Positions 18,197 through 37,668 of a DNA stretch of 64,000 nt are shown here, piece after piece. Source of the DNA: Roseateles toxinivorans (GTDB taxonomy: Bacteria; Pseudomonadota; Gammaproteobacteria; Burkholderiales; Burkholderiaceae_C); contig CAMDHE010000002.1 of assembly GCA_945898095.1 (NCBI GenBank), forward strand, positions 6,084 to 70,083, given 5' to 3'. Made by a program: the position numbers and the translations under genes. Every line of letters begins with the position of its first letter. Positions within the stretch are counted from its first letter, which is position 1. Under the pieces are notes generated by a model that saw nothing but the letters and a program-made list of their open reading frames with translations, was not told the DNA's origin and did no database searches.

Positions 18197-19831
18197 CTAC
18201 TCGCGGGCCTTGCTCATCCTGGCAGCCCAGCCGGGCATCCGGCGCTCCATCGTGTTGACGATCGCCTCTTGCCTGGCGCGCTTGAATGCCGCCGCGCCGG
18301 CATCCTGTGCCGCTTGATCGGCGCTCAGCGCGCGGGCCTGGATGCTGGCAGTCGAGGCAGCCATGGCTGTCGGCGTGATCCGCAGCGCATAGATGTCGGT
18401 GCGGTTGTCGAGATCGGTGCCGGACAAGGCCAGCACCGGCAGAAAGCCCGATCCGCTCGGCACCAGCCCCTGGTAGTCGCCCAGGAACAAGCCGCGCGCG
18501 TCCGGTGCCTGGGCCAGATCAAACTTGCTCCAGACCGGCGTTTCGACCCAGTTCAGACCATCGCGCGAGCTCAACAGCCAAGCGCCAGTCAAGAGGGTGG
18601 CAGGGTCGGCGCTGTCGGGGCGCAGGTCGTAATGGGTCACCCCGACCAAGCCGTCGGCGCTGATCGCGATGCTGGGAGTGAAGGCGGCCACGCTGGTTTG
18701 CCGGTTGATCAGCAAAGGCGCGCTCCAATTGAGACCGCCGTCGCTCGAACGGGTCAGCAGGATGGCATCGCGCTGGCCGGATGAAAACCGTGCGTCCTGC
18801 CAGGTCAGCCACAAGCTGCCCGCCGGCCCGACAGCGATGGCACCCAGGTAAGCGCCATCGCGGATCGCCTTGCCGCTCTGCGGGTCCTTGGCGCCGACCG
18901 CCTGGATGTCGGTGATGCGGATCGGCGCCGACCAGGTCAAGCCCTTGTCGCGCGAGCGCAGCACACCGAACCAGGAGGTCTGCTGGTTGCCCAGCGTGTC
19001 GATCTGGGTGAACAGATTGATCAGCGTGCCATCGGGCAGCACGACGATGCGGTTGCCCAGCGTCTGGCTGATACCGCCCGCCTTGACCGGTGCATAGATC
19101 ATGCGGGCCGGCTCCCAGGTGGCGCCGCTGTCACTGCTGCGCGCCATCAGCGTGGGGCCGAAACCGCTGTTGTCGATGCGGTCCCAGACGGCGAAGACAT
19201 AGCGCGCATCGGTCGGGTCGGCAGTCAGCGAGTTCTTGTCGTTGAACAAGGTATCGCCATCGCGCAACAAGGTGGCGGGCTCGCTCCAGCTGCGGCCACT
19301 ATCGGTCGAGCGGCTGACCAGCAATGCAGAAGATGAACCGGCCAGCAAAGTCCCGCCGTTGAAGCTCAAGGCCATCGAATAGATCACGCCGCCAGGACCG
19401 ATGTCGACCCAGGGATCGCTGGCGCGCTCGTAGTCGCCACTGCTACCGGCCAGCGCACCGCCGCAGCGTGAAAAAGGCATCAGCCGCCTGCTCCAGGTCA
19501 CGCCGCCATCAGTGGAGACCGCGGTCACCAGCGCTCTGGCGCCGCCATTGCTCCAGCGATCCTGCTGCCAGGTGGCGGCGAGCAAATTCGAATTGCCCGG
19601 CTGCACGGCCACAAAGGGCTCGACCTCGGCATTGGCATAAAGCACCCCGCTGCTCGAACCTCCGTCGCAGCCAGCCTGAACCGGGCTGCTGGTGCTGATT
19701 CGGCCAGCTGGCAGGGTCAGCGCCGGCGTCACCGGCACTTGAGTCGGGCTCGAACCGCCACCGCAACTGCCCAGGGCGGTCAAGGCGCCGACCAGCAACA
19801 TCCAATAACCAAGTCGCAGCGCTTGCATCAA
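18197..19831 (-). CDS. BNR/Asp-box repeat exo-alpha-sialidase-like lipoprotein
   Basis: Lipobox LTALGSC. Five Asp-box repeats (STDGGVTWS, STDSGRSWS, SSDSGATWE, SRDKGLTWS, SSDGGLNWS). Confidence 0.85.
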   Translation of the reverse strand: MMQALRLGYWMLLVGALTALGSCGGGSSPTQVPVTPALTLPAGRISTSSPVQAGCDGGSSSGVLYANAEVEPFVAVQPGNSNLLAATWQQDRWSNGGARALVTAVSTDGGVTWSRRLMPFSRCGGALAGSSGDYERASDPWVDIGPGGVIYSMALSFNGGTLLAGSSSALLVSRSTDSGRSWSEPATLLRDGDTLFNDKNSLTADPTDARYVFAVWDRIDNSGFGPTLMARSSDSGATWEPARMIYAPVKAGGISQTLGNRIVVLPDGTLINLFTQIDTLGNQQTSWFGVLRSRDKGLTWSAPIRITDIQAVGAKDPQSGKAIRDGAYLGAIAVGPAGSLWLTWQDARFSSGQRDAILLTRSSDGGLNWSAPLLINRQTSVAAFTPSIAISADGLVGVTHYDLRPDSADPATLLTGAWLLSSRDGLNWVETPVWSKFDLAQAPDARGLFLGDYQGLVPSGSGFLPVLALSGTDLDNRTDIYALRITPTAMAASTASIQARALSADQAAQDAGAAAFKRARQEAIVNTMERRMPGWAARMSKARE

Positions 19832-19841
19832 CCGAATCCTT

Positions 19842-21356
19842 TCAAATAGTGCGACGCAGATTGGCCGGGGCGATCTTCAGCGCCTCGCGGTATTTGGCCA
19901 CCGTGCGTCTTGCGACCTGGATGCCCTGTTCATCGAGCATGCTGGCCAAGGCGCTGTCGGACAAGGGTTTGGCAGGAATTTCAGCGGCGACAAACTGCTT
20001 GATCAAGGCGCGCACTGCCGTGCTCGAGGCGTTGCCACCGGAATCGGTCGAGAGTCCGGAGCCGAAGAAATATTTCAGCTCGAAGGTGCCGAAACTGGTG
20101 GCCATGTATTTGGCCGTGGTGACGCGCGAAATCGTCGATTCATGCAGGCCGAGTTCGTCGGCAATTTCGCGCAGCACCAAGGGTTTCATCGCCAACGCGC
20201 CATGGGTGAAAAAGCTTTTCTGGCGCTCGACGATGGCCTTGGAGACCCGCAAGATCGTCTCGAAACGCTGCTGGATGTTCTTGATGAACCAGCGCGCTTC
20301 CTGCAACTGTCCGCCCAGGGGACTGTTGCTGATACCGCCCCGCGTGGCACGCAGCGCATTGGCATAGAGCTCGTTGATACGCAGCTTGGGCGCAGCTTCC
20401 GGGTTCAGGGTGACGCGCAGCTCGCGCCCGACCTTGCGGACGATCACATCGGGCAGCACCGCCTGCGCCTGGCCCGGGGCAAAGCGGCGGCCGGGTTTGG
20501 GCTCGAGCGCCGTGATCATCGACTGGGCAAGACGCAGCAGCGCATCATCGGCGCCGGTCAAGGCCATCATCTTCTTGCTGTCGCGCCGAGCCAGCAGTTC
20601 CAGATGCGAGTCGCAGATCACGATCGCCAGCTGCTGCGCCTTGCTGGCCGGCTGTGTGCGCAATTGCAGCACCAGGCATTCAGCCAAGTCCCGGGCGCCG
20701 ACACCGGCAGGATCCATGCTCTGCAACCAGTTCCTGGCGATGCGCAGGTGGTCGAGCAGTTCTTCCTGGCTGTCTTCATCGTCGGTCAACGCGGCGGCGA
20801 TTTCTTCCAGGCTGTCCTCGAGATAGCCGTCGTCATTGAGCGACTCGATCAAGACTTGCAAGGCAACGCGGTCACTTTCCGACAAGCCCATGCCAGCCAG
20901 CTGTTGGCGCAAATGTTCGGCCAGGCTGATCTCGGCTGAATCCTGTTCGCTGCGCTCACCATCGTTCTCGTTGTTGCCACTGCCGGTACCGCTGCTGCTG
21001 GGCAGCTCGCGGATGCCATCAAAATCGTCACGCTCGGTGCCGTTTTCCCAATCATCGCGTTCGGTTTGGCCGAAATCCTCAGCCTTGATTTCGGCCATGT
21101 TCTCGGCCTCGGCGCCACCGCCGAGTTCGCTATCGGCATTGCTGTCCTCGGCCGCCGAGGCAATGCGCATTTCATCCAGCTCGGGCGTGGCCACCGAGAA
21201 GTCTTCTTCGGTCTCGAGCAGCGGGTTCTGCGCCAGCATCTGTTCGACTTCCTGGTTCAGCTCCAAGGTCGATAACTGCAACAACCGGATCGATTGTTGC
21301 AGCTGCGGCGTCAGCGATAGATGCTGACTGAGACGAATCTGGAGCGACTGTTTCAT
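19842..21356 (-). CDS. rpoN: RNA polymerase sigma-54 factor
   Basis: Region I MKQSLQIRLSQHLSLTPQLQQSIRLLQLS, acidic region II, C-terminal RpoN box ARRTVAKYR. Confidence 0.97.
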   Translation of the reverse strand: MKQSLQIRLSQHLSLTPQLQQSIRLLQLSTLELNQEVEQMLAQNPLLETEEDFSVATPELDEMRIASAAEDSNADSELGGGAEAENMAEIKAEDFGQTERDDWENGTERDDFDGIRELPSSSGTGSGNNENDGERSEQDSAEISLAEHLRQQLAGMGLSESDRVALQVLIESLNDDGYLEDSLEEIAAALTDDEDSQEELLDHLRIARNWLQSMDPAGVGARDLAECLVLQLRTQPASKAQQLAIVICDSHLELLARRDSKKMMALTGADDALLRLAQSMITALEPKPGRRFAPGQAQAVLPDVIVRKVGRELRVTLNPEAAPKLRINELYANALRATRGGISNSPLGGQLQEARWFIKNIQQRFETILRVSKAIVERQKSFFTHGALAMKPLVLREIADELGLHESTISRVTTAKYMATSFGTFELKYFFGSGLSTDSGGNASSTAVRALIKQFVAAEIPAKPLSDSALASMLDEQGIQVARRTVAKYREALKIAPANLRRTI

Positions 21357-26094: not shown

Positions 26095-27450
26095 ATGCTC
26101 CCGGACGCCCCGACGCCACATCAAGCCCAGACCCACTTGCCCGTCTATATCGGCAAGTACAAGGTGCTGCGCCGGCTCGGTGAAGGCGCCACCAGCGATG
26201 TCTTTCTGGCGCTGGATGAATTCCGCCAGCGCGAAGTGGCCATCAAACGCAGCCATGCCTGGACTGCCGGCGGCGGTCCACAAGCCGATTTGAGCGTTCG
26301 CTTCTTCGCTGCCGAGGCCGCCTTGGCCGGGCGCCTGCAGCATCCGAACGTGGTGCAGATCCTCGATGCGGTGCCGGACCATGGGGTGCCCTATCTGGTG
26401 ATGGAATATGTGCCGGGCGCGACGCTGAAGGATTTTTGTCGCGCCGACCGCTTGTTGCCGCTCGATCAGATCGTCGAGTTGGGGTTCAAATGCGCGATGG
26501 CCTTGTCCTATGTCTTTCGGCAGGGCCTGATTCATCGCGACGTGAAGCCGGCCAACTTGCTGGTCCCGCTCGACGCCGAAGGCCGGCCGAGCGATGTCAA
26601 GGTCAGCGATTTCGGCAGCTCCTTCGACATCCATTCCGACAGCACCCAAGTGCACCGGGTCGGCTCACTGACCTATATGGCACCGGAACAGATCGAGGGC
26701 AGCGACCTCGACTGCCGCACCGACATCTATGCGCTGGGCGCCGTGCTCTACCACCTGGTGGCCGGTCGCGCGCCTTTTGACGCACCCAGCCAGACCGCCT
26801 TGATGCACAAGATCCAGACCGAAGCGCCGGCTTCGCTGCTCGGCAGTCGCGGCGGCGTCACCGCGGCGCTCGACGACGTGATCCTCAAGGCGATGTCCAG
26901 GCGGGCGGCAGATCGCTATGCCGATTGGGAAAGCTTCGGCCGCGCCCTCTCGGGTCTGGCCAGCGGCGAGTTGGCGCCACAGGCCAAGCTCTATGAGGTC
27001 AAGGATTCGCAGCGCTTCAATATGCTGCGCGAGCTGGCCTTCTTCAACGACTTCGGCGATGTCGAGTTGTGGGAGGTGGTGCGGCGTGCGCGCTGGCGCC
27101 GCTATCCGCAGGGACAGATGATCTACAAGGCCGGACATGAGGGCAACAACTTCCACATCATTGCCCAGGGCGAGGTCGAAGTGTTCCGCGATGGCCGGCT
27201 GGTCGCCTCGCTGGGCGCAGGCAACTCGGTCGGCGAGATGGCCTATCTGGCGCCGAATCCGGCGCTGCGCCGCCATGGCGCCGATGTGCAGGTCAGCCAA
27301 GCCTGCACGACAGTCTCGTTCACCCCCGAATTGATGGCCCAGCTGAGCAATGAATGCCGGCACCGTTTCGATCGCAGCTTCATCGAGGTGCTGGTGCGAC
27401 GCCTGCATGCCGCGCATGAAGCAATGGATCATCCGCGCCGCATCATGTGA
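26095..27450 (+). CDS. Hanks-type Ser/Thr protein kinase fused to a C-terminal cyclic-nucleotide-binding-like domain
   Basis: Kinase motifs GEGATSDV, AIK, HRDVKPANLL, DFG, APE. C-terminal cNMP-like beta-barrel ...IIAQGEVEVFRDGRLVASLGAGNSVGEMAYL... Confidence 0.88.
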   Translation: MLPDAPTPHQAQTHLPVYIGKYKVLRRLGEGATSDVFLALDEFRQREVAIKRSHAWTAGGGPQADLSVRFFAAEAALAGRLQHPNVVQILDAVPDHGVPYLVMEYVPGATLKDFCRADRLLPLDQIVELGFKCAMALSYVFRQGLIHRDVKPANLLVPLDAEGRPSDVKVSDFGSSFDIHSDSTQVHRVGSLTYMAPEQIEGSDLDCRTDIYALGAVLYHLVAGRAPFDAPSQTALMHKIQTEAPASLLGSRGGVTAALDDVILKAMSRRAADRYADWESFGRALSGLASGELAPQAKLYEVKDSQRFNMLRELAFFNDFGDVELWEVVRRARWRRYPQGQMIYKAGHEGNNFHIIAQGEVEVFRDGRLVASLGAGNSVGEMAYLAPNPALRRHGADVQVSQACTTVSFTPELMAQLSNECRHRFDRSFIEVLVRRLHAAHEAMDHPRRIM

Positions 27451-31160: not shown

Positions 31161-31185
31161 CCAACCCCTATTGAAGCAAGGCCGC

Positions 31186-32211
31186 ATGAGCAGCAACAAG
31201 CCGATCGACATCGTCTACCTCTGGGTCGACGGCAATGACCCCGCCTGGCGCAAAAAGCGCCAGCGCGCAGCCGCTGCGCTGTGCCCAACAGCCTTGGCCA
31301 TGCATGGCAATGTCGAAGGGCGCTTCCGCGACAACGACGAATTGCGTTACAGCCTGCGCGCCCTGGAGCGCTTCTTTCCGGGCCATGGCCATGTCTATAT
31401 CGTCACCGACGGGCAGAGGCCGGAATGGCTGAAGCCTGGGGCAGGTCTGACCGTGGTCGACCACCGTCAGTTGATCGCAAGCGCTGCGCTGCCAACCTTT
31501 GATTCGGGCCATATCGAGTCCTATATCCACCACATCGAGGGCCTGTCGGAACGTTTCTTCTATCTCAACGACGATGTGTTTTTCGGCGCGCCGGTACGGG
31601 TCGAGGACTGGTTCAGCGACAGCGGCATCTATTCAGCCTGGTCAGACGAGCCGCTGGTCAGCGACGAGCCGCTCAGGCAGGACGGCAACGCGCTCGAGAA
31701 TGCCTGCCGCGCCGCGACCCATTGGTTGCGCGCCAGCGGAGTTGCCCAAGCAACAGCGGGCTTGCGCACCTTTGCCCATGCGCCCCGGCCGCTGCTGAAG
31801 TCGCTGATTTTCGAGCTCGAGCGGCTCGCACCTGAGGTCTTCGAGCGGACCCGCTCGACGGTGTTCAGGGTCTGGGACAAACCGCCGGTGATCTCGGACC
31901 TGTTGCTGCGCTGGGCCTTGTCGCGCGGCATCGTTGCGATTCGCGCTTACGAGCAACTGCACCTCGATACCGGCAATGCCGACCCGTTCAACTGCCTGGA
32001 ACAACTGAAAATCGACTTCGGCAGGCTTGATTTTTTCTGCATCAACGACACTACCGATGATGCCCATTCGCAGGACCCGCGCCTGCTCAGGGTGCGGCTG
32101 GCTTTGCAGCAGTTGCTGCCGGAGCCTTCATGTTTCGAGCGCCAGCGGGTTGAAATGCTGCCCCGGCACCATGCTGCAAAGCCCTCACTGCGCGAACTCC
32201 AGCCCGCCTGA
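31186..32211 (+). CDS. Stealth family protein (putative sugar-1-phosphate phosphotransferase)
   Basis: Stealth CR1 DIVYLWVDGNDPAW, CR2 ELRYSLRALERFFP..VYIVTDGQRPEWL and FFYLNDDVFFG, CR3/CR4-like HAPRPL..., FFCINDT. Confidence 0.85.
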   Translation: MSSNKPIDIVYLWVDGNDPAWRKKRQRAAAALCPTALAMHGNVEGRFRDNDELRYSLRALERFFPGHGHVYIVTDGQRPEWLKPGAGLTVVDHRQLIASAALPTFDSGHIESYIHHIEGLSERFFYLNDDVFFGAPVRVEDWFSDSGIYSAWSDEPLVSDEPLRQDGNALENACRAATHWLRASGVAQATAGLRTFAHAPRPLLKSLIFELERLAPEVFERTRSTVFRVWDKPPVISDLLLRWALSRGIVAIRAYEQLHLDTGNADPFNCLEQLKIDFGRLDFFCINDTTDDAHSQDPRLLRVRLALQQLLPEPSCFERQRVEMLPRHHAAKPSLRELQPA

Positions 32212-33038: not shown

Positions 33039-34121
33039 TCAGGCTTGCTTGAACATCCGCAGCCAGGCCTTGCGGCCCAGGTGCGGCGCCAGTTGCCAGA
33101 CCGGCATCCGCAAGCCATGGGCGCGCAGGTACAAGCCCGCCCGCGCCAGGCTGCTGGCATGGCTGTTGACCAGCCGGTTGTCGGGTGCAAGCGCGCGCAG
33201 ATACATCGCATCGAAGCAGGCCAGCTTCAGCCGCCCGATCGCTGCCGCTTCGGCAGCCGCAGCCAGCGTCGCCTCGGGCACGAGCGTGCCCAGGATCATC
33301 CCGGCATAGCGCAGCGCCAGAAAAACCGGCCAGACCAGCTTCAATTCGACCGCACGCTCCAGCAAGCGTGGCCAGAACTGCGGCTCGGCGGCGGCGAATT
33401 CGACCAGCAAGGCGTCCAGATCGTAAAGATCACGCAGCCCGTTGTTCAGCTCGCCTTCGTGGAACAAATGGGTCGCGCTATGGATCACCATGTCGCGTGG
33501 CGACAGCGTGCGCAGGCTGCGGCCCGGGATGCCCACGCTGGCGTCAATCAGCGTCGCCGCGTCGGGCACCCGCCCGCTGCTCAAGGGCAGAATATTGTGG
33601 TGCACGTCAACGATGGTGCCGCGCCGGTGGTTCACCATTGGCGGCAGTTCATGCATCCAGCGCCGGTAATAGCGCTCGTCATAAGGATCGATGTTGCCGA
33701 TGCGCCAGCCATGCAGCATCAGCGCGGCTTCAACCGCGTTCAAGGCCTCGCCAGGCACCAGCAAGTCAACATCGCCGAACAAGCGCCCGCGTGCTGCCCG
33801 CTGGCCGCGCATGGCATAGGCAGCGCCTTTCAGCAAAACGATCGGCACGCCCAGCGGCTGCAGCGCTTTTTCCAGGTGGCTGCATTCCCATTCGATCGCT
33901 TGTTGCTGATGCGCAGTAAGCCTCGACGTCGCCAGCAAATGCCGCGCAACTTGTGGTGGCAGCCTCTCCAGCAGCTGTTGTTCGCCCGCGATTTCGGCCA
34001 AGCGGCCGATCAGATTGGCGCTGCGCGCCAGCCGCAGCAAACGGTCCCATTGCCGCAAGCTCAAGCAAGGCCAGGTCCAGGGCTGGCGCAGCAAGCCGGT
34101 CAGCGAAAGCTCATTCGCCAT
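33039..34121 (-). CDS. Nucleotidyltransferase family protein (NTP_transf_5-like)
   Basis: ORF trimmed to ATG at 34121 (MANELSLTGLLRQPW...). Polymerase-beta-type motif RGRLFGDVDLLVP (DVD at 33765-33773). 11-nt overlap with the kinase gene. Confidence 0.75.
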   Translation of the reverse strand: MANELSLTGLLRQPWTWPCLSLRQWDRLLRLARSANLIGRLAEIAGEQQLLERLPPQVARHLLATSRLTAHQQQAIEWECSHLEKALQPLGVPIVLLKGAAYAMRGQRAARGRLFGDVDLLVPGEALNAVEAALMLHGWRIGNIDPYDERYYRRWMHELPPMVNHRRGTIVDVHHNILPLSSGRVPDAATLIDASVGIPGRSLRTLSPRDMVIHSATHLFHEGELNNGLRDLYDLDALLVEFAAAEPQFWPRLLERAVELKLVWPVFLALRYAGMILGTLVPEATLAAAAEAAAIGRLKLACFDAMYLRALAPDNRLVNSHASSLARAGLYLRAHGLRMPVWQLAPHLGRKAWLRMFKQA

Positions 34122-35070
34122 GCTCGCCCGCCAGCCAATCGAAAACCTCGATCGCATCATCGAGCCGGCTGTACTCGAAATCATGGCAATCGCATTGCTG
34201 CACCAGCCGGCCCACTGCATCGAAACCGAGCTCACCGAGGATGCTGTAGTTGAATGAATTTTCGGCGAAATGGGTGAAGGTCTGGACCTTGGCGCGCGGC
34301 GTCAGCAGTGGCGCGGCGCCGGCCTGATAGCGTGGAAAAACAATCCAGCGGGCCGGTGCAGTCTCGAGCATACGGGCCACGCTGTCGGCCGGAGGGCGCA
34401 AATGGGTCACCTGGCCGCGCGTGGTCGCGTAGACCTCGGGGCCCCAGCTCATGCCGGGCTCGAAGTTGCGCAACAAGGCGATCGACTCGTTTTTCAGATT
34501 GATCGGCCGGGCCAACGCATGGGCATGCAGGCTCAGAGGATCGAGCAGGGTCAGCTCGTCCGAAAGCAAGCGCCAGCCGCGCAATGCCAGGGCGGCACAG
34601 AGCGTGCTCTTGCCCGAGCCGGGCGGCGCCGGCAGGATCAACACCTGCCCGTTGCGTTCCAGGCTGGCGGCATGAATCGTCAACCATTGGTGTGCAGACG
34701 AGGCGAGCGCCCAGTTCAAACCCCATTCCAGCATCGCCGGCGCCTGCTCGCGCGGCAAGGGTTCGAACGGTGCATGGCCATCGATCAGGAACTCGACCTG
34801 CTGCCGCAACCAGCGCCGCAAATTCATCGGCTGGCGCAACTCCACATGGAAATCGGCAAAGTCGGGATCGATGAAAAAGGGATGCTGCGCGTACAGACGG
34901 TGCAGCGACTGCGCCACATCGGGCAACGTCGAGCGGATCCTGGCGATCAACTGCCCGGTCTGCAAGGCCAGCTTCCCGTCACTGAGCAGCCCCGCGACTT
35001 CTGCCAGCGATAACTCACCCAATCGACCATTCTGGCCGCCTGGCCCAAGCCGCAAGGTTGCCGCGCTCAT
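34111..35070 (-). CDS. HPr-kinase-related P-loop kinase ('HprK-related kinase A'-like)
   Basis: 319 aa. LILPAPPGSGKSTLCAALALRGWRLLSDELTLL parallels HprK/P GxSGxGKSE..L...GHxLVADD. P-loop at 34603-34620. Confidence 0.75.
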   Translation of the reverse strand: MSAATLRLGPGGQNGRLGELSLAEVAGLLSDGKLALQTGQLIARIRSTLPDVAQSLHRLYAQHPFFIDPDFADFHVELRQPMNLRRWLRQQVEFLIDGHAPFEPLPREQAPAMLEWGLNWALASSAHQWLTIHAASLERNGQVLILPAPPGSGKSTLCAALALRGWRLLSDELTLLDPLSLHAHALARPINLKNESIALLRNFEPGMSWGPEVYATTRGQVTHLRPPADSVARMLETAPARWIVFPRYQAGAAPLLTPRAKVQTFTHFAENSFNYSILGELGFDAVGRLVQQCDCHDFEYSRLDDAIEVFDWLAGEHGE

Positions 35071-35327
35071 CTCAGCAGACCATGGGCTTCAAGCTGATCG
35101 CGGGCTTGCGCTACCGCCAAGGGCAAATCGACGATCTCGGCAAAGTCGGCGGCCAGGCGCTTGCAGAGCGCTGACTGATCGAGCGAAGGCGCTTCGAGCC
35201 AGACCCTGAAGACCTCGGCAGTCAGCCGGTTCAACCCATGGGTGTTGCCATATTGCCGATCAAAAATAACTGCCCCGTCGGACCAGCAGCGCCACAGGAA
35301 ACCCGGGCTATCTCGATGTTCGATCAC
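35067..35327 (-). CDS. PqqD-family (RiPP-recognition-element-like) small protein
   Basis: 86 aa. W..W.DGAVIFDRQYGNTHGLNRLTAEVFRVWLE pattern of PqqD-like chaperones. ATGA overlap with the kinase gene. Confidence 0.7.
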   Translation of the reverse strand: MIEHRDSPGFLWRCWSDGAVIFDRQYGNTHGLNRLTAEVFRVWLEAPSLDQSALCKRLAADFAEIVDLPLAVAQARDQLEAHGLLR

Positions 35328-35330
35328 GAC

Positions 35331-35876
35331 TCAAGCGACGATGCCGTTGCTCTGCAGATAGTCCTTGATCTGCACATCGGTCCAGTTCACACCGGCGGTC
35401 ACGGTGTAGTAACCCAGAGTCGACCATTGGGTCCAGATCGACTGCACGACCGCAGTGGTCAGCACATTGGCTGGCACATAGCCAAGCAGGATGTTCAGAT
35501 AAGCCGACAGGACGTAAGCGGCCAGACTGGTTGGGTACTGAACCAGGACTTGCCTCATCGTCAAACTGGTTCCGGAAACAATGAAATTGCTGCCTGAAAA
35601 AGTCGGGTGAAACAGCGTGCTGGAAGCTATTGGCCAGCCCGTTTCATCGGCATCCCTGAAAAACACCGGCGATTTCGCGCCAACGCAAAGCCCATCCTTG
35701 CCAGCTTGCGAAGCGCTGGTGTTCTTCGACAGCGAGCGCGATGGCGTGAAGCAGGTATTGCCCAGCGCGGGTTGGCTGATCAAGGTCAGGATCGCCGGCG
35801 TGGCCGCCGCACCCGCGCCGAGAAACCTGCGTCGCCGCGGGTCCGGTATTGCCTGAGAACTTTCACTGTTTTCCAT
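35331..35876 (-). CDS. Tat-signal secreted protein of unknown function
   Basis: 181 aa. Twin-arginine motif DPRRRRFLGAGAAATPAILTLISQPALG (35820-35837 encodes RRRRFL). Ser/Thr-rich start of the mature part, two Cys. Stop is 3 nt before the PqqD start. Confidence 0.75.
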   Translation of the reverse strand: MENSESSQAIPDPRRRRFLGAGAAATPAILTLISQPALGNTCFTPSRSLSKNTSASQAGKDGLCVGAKSPVFFRDADETGWPIASSTLFHPTFSGSNFIVSGTSLTMRQVLVQYPTSLAAYVLSAYLNILLGYVPANVLTTAVVQSIWTQWSTLGYYTVTAGVNWTDVQIKDYLQSNGIVA

Positions 35877-36024: not shown

Positions 36025-37668
36025 TCAGTTCAGCGGCAACACCTTGCCCTGTGATTGGGCTGGCGCAGGGATGCCGATGATCTGCGCCAGCGTTGGCGCG
36101 AGGTCGGCGATCTCGACCCGCTGGCGCTGCTCGCCCTGGCCGACCCTGCCCTGGCCCCAGAACAACAGCGGCACATGGGTGTCATATTCGTACGGCGTGC
36201 CATGCGAGCTGCCGCCGCTGCGCGTGCCGAACAACCAGCCCGGCTTGATGACGATCTGCACTGGTGCGGCGATTTCCGGATGCCAGGATTTGCGCATGGC
36301 CCCCAGATAAGCGGTGCTGACATCGCTGCCCTGCAGTTGCTCGAGCGTGAAGACATCGGCGATGCCATCCAGTTGCAGCAACAAAGTCTTGGCTTCCCGG
36401 TAGACATCGGCCGGACTGGCGCCTCGGGCGGCGATCAGTTGCTGGTCGAACAGCAGGCCGGCAGCGGAAAAATTCAGCGCCCAGCGGCCGGCGCCGAATT
36501 TCTTCACCAACCCGTCGTTGACCCAGCCGAGCAGTTGCGTCGGGTTGACGCGCCCGACATCAAGACCTTTCGACCTGGCCCATTCAGGGGTGTCAGCGAA
36601 GCCATGGTCAGAGGTGAGCGCCACCACATAGTTGCCGGCGCCGATGCGCTGGTCGAGGTAGCTGAAAAAGCTCTGAAGCGCCACATCGAGATGCAAAAAA
36701 TGGTCATGTGAGAGCCGCGACTCGGGGCCGAAGGCATGGTTGACATAGTCATGCCCCGACAGGCTGACCGACAAGATGTCGGTCTTACTATCGACACCGA
36801 GGCCCTCGCCTTCAATCGCCGCACGCGCAAAGGAAAAAGTCAATTCATCGCTGAACGGCGTGGCCATCAAGCCGGCGTAGTACAGCGGTCCTGGCTTGTC
36901 ATGTTTGGCACCGATGACGGCAGGCAGTCGGTTGCCATTGCCGCTGTTGACCTGCCAGGGCTGGCCATCGGGAACCGACTGGGCATAGGCAACTTCAGCC
37001 AGCAGCGGCGCCCAGGTCTTGCCGAAATAGGCGTCAGCCGGCTTGGCCTGGTTGAAATCATTCACCCATTGCGGATGGGCCGGCATGTAATAAGTACTGG
37101 ACGCGAACTGGCCGCTTTCGCTCATATACATATAGGCCTTGCCCTTGTGGCCGGCAGGCAGGATGGCGCCGCGGTCCTTGCCCGAGATCGCAAGCACCTT
37201 AGACGCGGCATCCTGGCTGCGCAGCACATCGCCGAGCGTTTCGACCCGCAGATTGCGCGGGCTGGTGCCGGCCAGTGGCGCGGTCTTGTGGTCGATGTAC
37301 TGGTAATCGGCATCGCCGGTGCAGTAGACCGCTTGCCCGGTCTGCGGGTCTCGCCATTCATTGCTGATGATGCCGCTGCGCTGCGGATAAGCGCCGCTGA
37401 GCATCACCGCATGACCGGCTGCGGTGACCGTATGGCCATGACCGTAATGGGCGTTTGAAAACCAGCTGCCACGGTCAAGAAAACGCCTGAAGCCATCGGG
37501 CTGCAACTGCTCGCGATAACTGAGGGCCTGGCGCATCGGCAGGCCGTCGACCACCAGCAGCACCACGAGCTTCGGCGGCGGCTGGCCGGCGGGCAAGGCC
37601 GGCAGATTGCTGCAGCCAAGCAGCAGGGATAAACAGGCAGCGGACAGCAGCAATCGACGCTTGATCAT
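36025..37668 (-). CDS. Alkaline phosphatase / nucleotide pyrophosphatase-phosphodiesterase (NPP) family lipoprotein
   Basis: Lipobox LLLGCS. Metal/nucleophile motifs VVDGLPMRQ, GHTVTAAGH, SGHDYVNHAFGPES, LTSDHGF. Confidence 0.85.
   Translation of the reverse strand: MIKRRLLLSAACLSLLLGCSNLPALPAGQPPPKLVVLLVVDGLPMRQALSYREQLQPDGFRRFLDRGSWFSNAHYGHGHTVTAAGHAVMLSGAYPQRSGIISNEWRDPQTGQAVYCTGDADYQYIDHKTAPLAGTSPRNLRVETLGDVLRSQDAASKVLAISGKDRGAILPAGHKGKAYMYMSESGQFASSTYYMPAHPQWVNDFNQAKPADAYFGKTWAPLLAEVAYAQSVPDGQPWQVNSGNGNRLPAVIGAKHDKPGPLYYAGLMATPFSDELTFSFARAAIEGEGLGVDSKTDILSVSLSGHDYVNHAFGPESRLSHDHFLHLDVALQSFFSYLDQRIGAGNYVVALTSDHGFADTPEWARSKGLDVGRVNPTQLLGWVNDGLVKKFGAGRWALNFSAAGLLFDQQLIAARGASPADVYREAKTLLLQLDGIADVFTLEQLQGSDVSTAYLGAMRKSWHPEIAAPVQIVIKPGWLFGTRSGGSSHGTPYEYDTHVPLLFWGQGRVGQGEQRQRVEIADLAPTLAQIIGIPAPAQSQGKVLPLN

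Follow-up and report, generated by a model that had tools for sequence, protein, structure and literature searches.

On what substrate do a PqqD-like peptide chaperone, an HprK-related kinase and a nucleotidyltransferase (NTase) act when their genes stand together without a lasso cyclase? The question is raised by a locus of Roseateles toxinivorans (contig CAMDHE010000002.1), lying within a 64-kb stretch of DNA that was analysed as a whole and is called the window below, in which these three genes directly follow a gene for a protein with a twin-arginine translocation (Tat) signal. Our analysis reveals that the Tat-signal protein is an obligate fourth member of the cassette and not a chance neighbour. 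By analogy with known tailoring systems, the four genes may form a protein-maturation module, in which phosphorylation guided by a RiPP recognition element (RRE; RiPP, a peptide made on ribosomes and modified after translation) and a subsequent decoration of the phosphate would be completed before Tat export, a reading that we hold to be about evenly balanced between right and wrong.

PqqD-type RRE proteins bind the leader of a precursor and pass the adjoining core to tailoring enzymes. To our knowledge, studies of RRE-guided tailoring have so far dealt with short peptides, and those of the pair of a kinase and an NTase only with the decoration of lasso peptides. The pairing of kinase and PqqD-like protein is itself already catalogued in NCBIfam as the 'HPr-rel-A system', so that only the link to a substrate and the genomic context are new here. 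What appear to be new are the constant NTP_transf_5 partner, the Tat-signal family as the fourth, obligate gene (a likely substrate in which a serine loop can be defined), and the recurrent location in exopolysaccharide loci. In the literature searched, the models TIGR04352 and TIGR04353, the name 'HprK-related kinase A' and the Pfam family PF14907 are unmentioned and PEP-CTERM is nowhere tied to HPr kinase, and a query on RiPP and twin-arginine together gave nothing like the cassette among the matches listed.

Organization of the cassette

The cassette consists of four genes on the reverse strand, and two parts of the Tat-signal protein are of special concern for the proposed modification.

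35331..35876 (-): gene of the Tat-signal protein, 181 aa, from the open reading frame (ORF) call; proposed substrate and fourth obligate member of the cassette
35760..35876 (-): predicted Tat signal peptide, residues 1-39, with the RRRRF twin-arginine motif at 35823-35837
35685..35753 (-): Cys42...Cys64 loop at the predicted N-terminus of the mature Tat-signal protein; proposed modification site, with the Ser46 codon at 35739-35741
35067..35327 (-): gene of the PqqD-like (putatively RRE-type) peptide chaperone, 86 aa, GTG start; TIGR04353
34111..35070 (-): gene of HprK-related kinase A, 319 aa; TIGR04352; Pfam PF27840 'ScmC'
33039..34121 (-): gene of the NTP_transf_5 nucleotidyltransferase, 360 aa from ATG 34121; PF14907

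The original prediction, made from the sequence of the locus, had described four closely packed genes on one strand, and the ORFs agree with it at every junction. The TGA of the Tat-signal protein gene is followed by GTC and then by the GTG start of the 86-aa gene, which leaves a 3-nt gap, an ATGA overlap joins the 86-aa gene with the kinase gene, and the kinase stop overlaps by 11 nt with the NTase ATG at 34121 (ATGGCGAATGA). The 181-aa Tat-signal protein begins with MENSESSQAIPDPRRRRFLGAGAA. A longer ORF of 398 aa can be read for the NTase from GTG 34235, and the use of this start is unlikely because it lies deep inside the kinase gene.

Conservation of the four genes across genomes

A census made with an alignment of the kinase found a relative encoded in 538 of the 600 candidate stretches from GTDB species genomes; the best 80 loci were retrieved together with flanking DNA of 10 kb, and their ORFs were called and clustered. 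The kinases of these loci are 45-96% identical to that of the window and come mostly from Betaproteobacteria, with some from Gammaproteobacteria; the locus L001, from a Burkholderiales metagenome-assembled genome, has a 96% identical kinase and full synteny with the window. Wherever the four families occur, they stand on one strand in the fixed order Tat-signal protein, PqqD-like protein, kinase and NTase. A gene of the Tat family was found in all 76 loci with at least 1.2 kb of DNA upstream of the kinase, by clustering, by a motif scan and by direct reading of the last five, and also in three of the four loci with shorter upstream DNA. By tblastn the NTase was found in 80 of 80 loci and the Tat-signal protein in 58 of 80, the missed copies being either beyond the reach of tblastn by their divergence or lost by the gene caller. 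Any other gene family is present in at most 25 of 81 loci.

The linkage was also followed in the opposite direction. Five distant Tat-family representatives were placed on contigs, and in all five a gene of about 90 aa comes next, followed by a PF27840 kinase wherever the contig continues and then by PF14907 where the contig reaches that far. As for the fourth gene that co-varies with the triad, which the original prediction had left to be found, it is the Tat-signal protein in every informative locus and in every reciprocal look-up. The four-gene linkage is near certain.

The Tat-signal protein family

The Tat-signal protein of the window carries the motif PRRRRFLGAG and an h/c region ILTLISQPALG, with predicted cleavage after ALG (QPALG, then N); by motif, h-region and cleavage site it fits a Tat substrate, for which export is predicted. 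Among 36 diverse members of the family R15, R16 and S46 are invariant, and C42, S50, C64, F93 and N128 are at least 90% conserved. The RR motif is found in 133 of 138 cluster representatives and the pattern RR...C..PS..S...C in 121 of them, and the h/c region family-wide reads (I/V)LTL(A/V)S(R/Q)P(V/A)L(G/A). Within 1-5 residues past the predicted cleavage site lies the loop C42-x-(S/T)-P-S46-x3-S50-G-N-x-S54...C64-x-G-x-SPGYWK...WP, which in the window takes the form C-F-T-P-S46-R-S-L-S50-K-N-T-S54-...-C64, and a helical C-terminal domain with the pattern AAYLN...W.E...G.Y.P.AG..W...I..YL completes the protein. Mean pairwise identity is highest in the signal peptide (0.44), as compared with 0.36 in the Cys loop and 0.26 in the C-terminal domain.

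In the AlphaFold2 model of the protein, residues 60-181 have a predicted local distance difference test score (pLDDT) above 90, and residues 1-38 and 48-56 are disordered, the pLDDT of loop residues 48-56 being below 50. The model is consistent with a flexible Cys42-Cys64 loop beside a confidently folded domain. The folded part has no fold match in the PDB (best E 4) or BFVD, and a profile search with the family found no PDB sequence. The Tat-signal protein itself has no Pfam, NCBIfam or PADLOC match, none of the 36 members matches Pfam, and the database names of the family are 'hypothetical protein' in every case. In a profile search with a broad alignment of the family the word index saturated and gave the close subgroup only, so that an index-free profile search was used instead; it returned 1350 cluster representatives at E<=1e-3, with 501 of them at E<=1e-10, and the best 150 of the 1350 matches are nearly all 170-250 aa long. 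Across the cassettes the gene at the precursor position encodes 181-366 aa. The long members, of 330-366 aa (P0330, P0345 and P0396; L082 and L083), are enlarged by a big insertion that separates the N-terminal loop region from the C-terminal domain, and they belong to the same kind of cassette.

Other readings of this protein were tried and rejected. The window loop C-F-T-P-S-R-S-L-S resembles the sulfatase formylglycine motif C-x-P-x-R, a likeness that is probably coincidental: the Arg is unconserved in the family (CKSPSG, CESPSA, CSISGM), the spacing is off by one residue, and a gene for FGE or anSME was not found. The protein is not a lipoprotein, the Cys falling 2-5 residues past the ALG/VLA site and outside any lipobox, and it is not a PEP-CTERM cargo, as the C-termini of the family (NGIVA, TQS, TFG and others) have no PEP-CTERM motif.

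The kinase, the nucleotidyltransferase and the PqqD-like protein

The window kinase scores 373.7 bits against NCBIfam TIGR04352 HprK_rel_A (cutoff 200), with 279 of 280 profile positions covered; PF27840 is the name of its family in newer Pfam releases. Its P-loop GSGKST (within PPGSGKST) was confirmed at 34603-34620 and is followed by RGWRLLSDE, and the P-loop and the LLSDE motif are kept in at least 90% of 76 orthologues. The AlphaFold2 model of the kinase is confident (mean pLDDT 91, with 61 homologues), and by Foldseek it matches ATP-dependent phosphoenolpyruvate carboxykinase (PEPCK) across both domains (E 3.7e-7, TMq 0.54, probability 1.00) as well as the HprK/P catalytic domains 3tqf, 1kkl and 1jb1 (E 1.7e-4 to 1e-2, probability 0.9-1.0). 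Judged from this model, the kinase has a PEPCK/HprK-like P-loop fold, that is, the nucleotide-binding fold it has in common with HprK/P and ATP-dependent PEPCK. The parallel that had been drawn between its motifs and the HprK/P core is seen in GxxGxGKS(T)...RGxRL(L/V)(S/A)D(D/E). The kinase is nevertheless unlike HprK/P proper, since its N-terminal domain is closer to PEPCK than to the HprK/P N-domain, the HprK equivalog model is absent among its NCBIfam matches, and no HPr (ptsH) gene was found in the conserved cassette neighbourhood of the census loci. A PDB sequence search with the kinase gave no relative at E<=1.

The NTase matches Pfam PF14907 NTP_transf_5 with an E-value of 4e-55 and 187.5 bits (cutoff 31.2). 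It contains the motifs LLKGAAY...FGDVDLLV, with the D-V-D (DxD) at 33765-33773 just where it had been placed before, and IVDVHH; the catalytic-type motifs LLKGAAY...GD(V/I)D(L/I)LV and (I/V)DVHH are conserved in at least 80-90% of 70 orthologues.

The 86-aa protein scores 43.5 bits against TIGR04353, 'HPr-rel-A system PqqD family peptide chaperone' (cutoff 35), over the full profile length. Among 57 orthologues, 16 match PF05402 PqqD (best E 3.7e-6) and 19 match PF22106 NGO1945_C, which is another RRE-type domain, and the motif W.DE.VV.D..SGDTH.L is conserved in the family. The two NCBIfam models that the original prediction had named do exist, and the adjacent kinase and 86-aa genes of the window, lying above both equivalog cutoffs, make the locus a member of the HPr-rel-A system. 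The catalogued system differs from the present cassette in being made of two co-occurring families, to which neither a substrate nor a function is attached.

Relation to lasso-peptide clusters

In lasso clusters HprK-type kinases phosphorylate a serine of the still-unfolded precursor, and in the case of pseudomycoidin the nucleotidyltransferase PsmN, itself uncharacterised, is required for the appearance of one or two hexoses on the phosphate added by the kinase PsmK (PMC8498205, PMC6993621). The cassette is like the lasso systems of paeninodin (PadeK) and pseudomycoidin (PsmK/PsmN) in having a stand-alone RRE (B1 in those systems, a putative one here), an HprK-family kinase and a nucleotidyltransferase (PMC8498205, PMC6993621). 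It is unlike them in lacking the lasso cyclase, the B2 protease and the ABC exporter, and in its candidate substrate, a folded Tat-signal protein of about 20 kDa as against a peptide of about 40 aa. On the proposed reading, to which we give about even odds, the RRE-guided work of kinase and NTase that is known from lasso peptides would here be done on a protein exported by Tat.

An asparagine-synthetase-like cyclase was not found in the window, in agreement with the original prediction, since all ORFs of at least 450 aa were identified as other proteins: RlmL, a BNR protein, RpoN, ArgS, a Ser/Thr kinase, GlcD, ComM/ChlI, AmtB, DctM, a HlyD-type protein, malate synthase G, a PafA-like phosphatase and, by inspection only, PntB and MetH. 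It had also been considered that homologous triads might always lie beside a lasso cyclase, so that the present copy would be a decayed cluster; no cyclase adjoins any of the 80 cassettes. The recurrent neighbour families of the 80 loci include no asparagine synthetase and no transglutaminase-like protease, a conserved protease gene was not found among them, and the PP-loop motif SGGxDS occurs in 2 of 1375 census-neighbourhood genes, both several kb from the cassette. The cassette is therefore autonomous and is not a lasso cluster.

Proposed maturation pathway

From what the four genes encode, from the fold of the kinase, from the linkage and the conserved motifs of the genes and from the lack of lasso genes we infer a pathway, with its binding partners, acceptor residue, chemistry and export route, that would run as follows. 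The 181-aa protein would be synthesised in the cytoplasm with its Tat signal peptide, and the 86-aa PqqD-like, putatively RRE-type protein would bind its N-terminal part, the signal peptide playing the role of a RiPP-like leader. To take the signal peptide as the leader is the simplest model, because it stands directly N-terminal to the serine loop and is unusually conserved. The PqqD-like protein would then offer the Cys42-Cys64 loop to the PEPCK/HprK-fold kinase, which may phosphorylate a conserved serine, with Ser46 as the prime candidate and Ser50 and Ser54 as alternatives. The NTP_transf_5 enzyme could next put a sugar or a nucleotide-derived group on the phosphate, comparable with PsmN after PsmK, and this succession of phospho and then nucleotidyl or hexosyl chemistry is proposed by analogy. 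The modified protein, with its C-terminal domain folded in the cytoplasm, would exit via Tat; Tat rather than Sec would be the suitable route because the reactions need cytoplasmic nucleotides and the C-terminal domain is compactly folded. A signal peptidase would finally cut off the 'leader', and C42 and C64 would be able to form a disulfide outside the cytoplasm.

There are partial precedents for a signal peptide in such a role. The Tat proofreading chaperones TorD, DmsD and NapD are small cytoplasmic proteins, each of which binds the signal peptide of one client until that client is matured. As proposed for the cassette, the signal peptide is their recognition handle and maturation is completed before export; they differ in not having the PqqD/RRE fold and in overseeing cofactor insertion, not kinase/NTase chemistry. 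Bufferins are RiPP precursors that bear signal peptides, and they rely on Sec signals and MNIO enzymes, whereas the cassette here has a Tat signal and a kinase/NTase pair.

A wider form of the proposal, which we regard as somewhat doubtful, is that the Tat signal peptide doubles as a RiPP-type leader, that the PqqD-fold chaperone retains the pre-protein until a phosphodiester-linked group has been built on Ser46 and export follows only then, and that this class is widespread, with about 1350 clusters, and in many Betaproteobacteria feeds the XrtA/PEP-CTERM exopolysaccharide or floc matrix. If so, a phospho-hexose, a phospho-nucleotide and a prosthetic group are all conceivable on Ser46, and for the first time a full-size protein exported by Tat would be seen to be modified under the guidance of an RRE.

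Several results weigh against a leader-guided phosphorylation of this kind. The high identity of the signal peptide is partly compositional. In a distance-correlation (mirror-tree) test all parts of the four genes co-diverge (r 0.5-0.84), and for the PqqD-like protein and the signal peptide the partial r is 0.05 after control for the kinase, so that nothing specific to this pair appears. The family assignments of the original prediction stand for TIGR04352, TIGR04353 and PF14907; the 86-aa copy of the window itself has no Pfam match at E<=0.1, PqqD included. What is more, known lasso kinases use a C-terminal serine, and the Tat family has no conserved C-terminal Ser, its conserved serines being internal and just past the signal peptide. 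The comparison of the cassette NTase with PsmN is also weakened in that PsmN is a presumed member of PF14907.

If the proposed maturation holds true, RiPP-style logic applied to a folded, Tat-exported protein would blur the line between RiPP biosynthesis and post-translational modification of proteins. An NCBIfam system that has been without a substrate for more than a decade would gain a concrete candidate, with a named serine in a named loop, and a family of about 1350 clusters, 'hypothetical' throughout and with neither a Pfam model nor a known fold, would gain its first functional handle.

Alternative explanations

The three enzymes might instead act elsewhere, on a small peptide that escaped annotation, on a sugar linked to a lipid or a nucleotide, or on an exopolysaccharide intermediate, and the Tat-signal protein would then be no more than their partner in the periplasm, where it might for instance bind or carry the product. 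This explanation, which we consider unlikely, is favoured by the presence of 31 of 81 cassettes in XrtA/PEP-CTERM exopolysaccharide loci, by the genes for a Stealth-family hexose-1-phosphate transferase and a PafA-like phosphatase near the window cassette, and by the chemistry of the NTase, which is so far only presumed. However, PqqD/RRE proteins are binders of peptides, and for a hidden peptide gene there is no room because the cassette genes abut with gaps of at most 3 nt; no further conserved ORF accompanies the cassette, and the Stealth and PafA neighbours are not conserved. The Tat-signal protein is moreover most conserved in its cytoplasm-exposed N-terminal segment with the invariant serines, for which a periplasmic partner would have no need.

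With the Tat-signal protein kept as substrate, phosphorylation might serve as activation only: the phosphoserine would be eliminated to dehydroalanine and attacked by Cys to give a lanthionine-like thioether, following the kinase-then-elimination logic of class III/IV lanthipeptide synthetases. Two near-invariant cysteines do stand on either side of the invariant serines, a kinase is present, and it is not evident why a phosphate should be kept stable outside the cell, but the cassette has no lyase or cyclase domain, the NTase would be left without a role, and a simple disulfide explains the Cys pair equally well, so that we take this route to be quite improbable. Still far less probable is the idea that an AbiEii-like nucleotidyltransferase is here the core of a toxin-antitoxin or anti-phage module, which is suggested by a weak sub-threshold similarity of the NTase to AbiEii (E 0.0074) and is opposed by the absence of PADLOC matches for all four proteins, by the chromosomal, vertically co-inherited nature of the cassette and its housekeeping or exopolysaccharide contexts, and by the Tat-exported partner, which is at odds with toxin-antitoxin logic. 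The trio of RRE, HprK-type kinase and NTase is otherwise known from lasso clusters (PMC8498205, PMC6993621), which would make a decayed or split cluster, having lost its cyclase and protease, a natural thought; the census refutes it, as an Asn-synthase-like gene is found neither in the window nor beside any homologous cassette, and as the cassette is intact across Beta- and Gammaproteobacteria with a protein partner of its own, which brings the probability of this origin close to nil.

Genomic context and promoters

At least one XrtA/PEP-CTERM exopolysaccharide gene lies in the flanks of the 31 loci mentioned above (about 38% of 81), and at least two lie in the flanks of 21. The markers found above NCBIfam cutoffs are PrsT, pepcterm_export, ChnLen, the XrtA-associated tyrosine autokinase and the TIGR03013 glycosyltransferase (EpsB_2), and a FeeM-like acyltransferase and an SLT/Sel1 protein are also among the neighbours of cassettes in such loci. 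In L085, too, the cassette stands between exosortase-type hydrolase and acyl carrier protein genes on one side and Sel1/SLT, FeeM-like, PEP-CTERM and Bac_transf genes on the other. In 20 other loci the cassette is inserted between hemA-prfA-prmC and grxD. No XrtA/PEP-CTERM marker was found anywhere in the 64-kb window, so that the label 'orphan' given to the cassette by the original prediction is right locally and wrong for the family, in which more than a third of the cassettes reside in XrtA/PEP-CTERM loci.

Of 68 loci, 20 have a sigma-54-type -24/-12 element (GGCAC-N5-TTGCT-like) upstream of the gene for the Tat protein, where about 2 would be expected by chance on a rough estimate. The elements lie 60-350 nt upstream of the RR codons of the Tat protein, for example GGCACCCTTATTGCT and GGCACGGTTTTTGCT, and the loci having one include L009, L016, L019, L026, L033, L034, L037, L051, L066, L070, L074, L076 and L078. 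In the 148-nt upstream spacer of the window there is no such element, just TGGCAC-N5-GGAAA, and consensus scans for sigma-70 promoters and terminators around the cassette gave nothing useful. Genes of PEP-CTERM proteins have been reported to be RpoN-dependent (PMC9850573). From the XrtA/PEP-CTERM loci together with the frequent sigma-54-type promoters, a role in the biofilm or floc matrix of environmental and wastewater Betaproteobacteria is indicated.

In the window the cassette has the gene of the PafA-like alkaline phosphatase at one end and those of GDT1, Stealth and malate synthase G at its opposite end. These neighbours are common only to the near-identical L001, with PafA and GlcF also found in L039, and a functional link of the cassette to the Stealth, GDT1 or PafA-like genes was rejected, as they are not conserved beyond L001, the PafA gene of L039 excepted.

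31171-32211 (+): Stealth-family protein of the hexose-1-phosphate transferase type, with CR1-CR4 all detected; about 830 bp past the NTase stop
36025-37668 (-): PafA-like alkaline phosphatase / type I phosphodiesterase, whose signal LLLGC is of the lipoprotein type; with 444.6 bits it stays below NF042991 (cutoff 650); its end is 148 nt upstream of the Tat-protein gene, both being on one strand, and as a neighbour of the cassette it recurs in L001 and L039 alone
18197-19831 (-) and 19842-21356 (-): a protein with BNR/Asp-box repeats, lipoprotein-like at its N-terminus, beside rpoN (sigma-54); no apparent tie to the cassette
26095-27450 (+): fusion of a Ser/Thr protein kinase and a cyclic-nucleotide-binding domain, about 5.6 kb beyond the NTase end

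The Stealth gene is probably outside the cassette, since it is common only to the near-identical L001, although a phosphosugar transferase near a phospho-modification cassette is still suggestive. In four loci of Rhodocyclaceae (L019, L026, L033 and L034) orthologues of the fusion kinase (cluster c41) directly precede the gene of the Tat protein, which could be a regulatory link or a coincidence.

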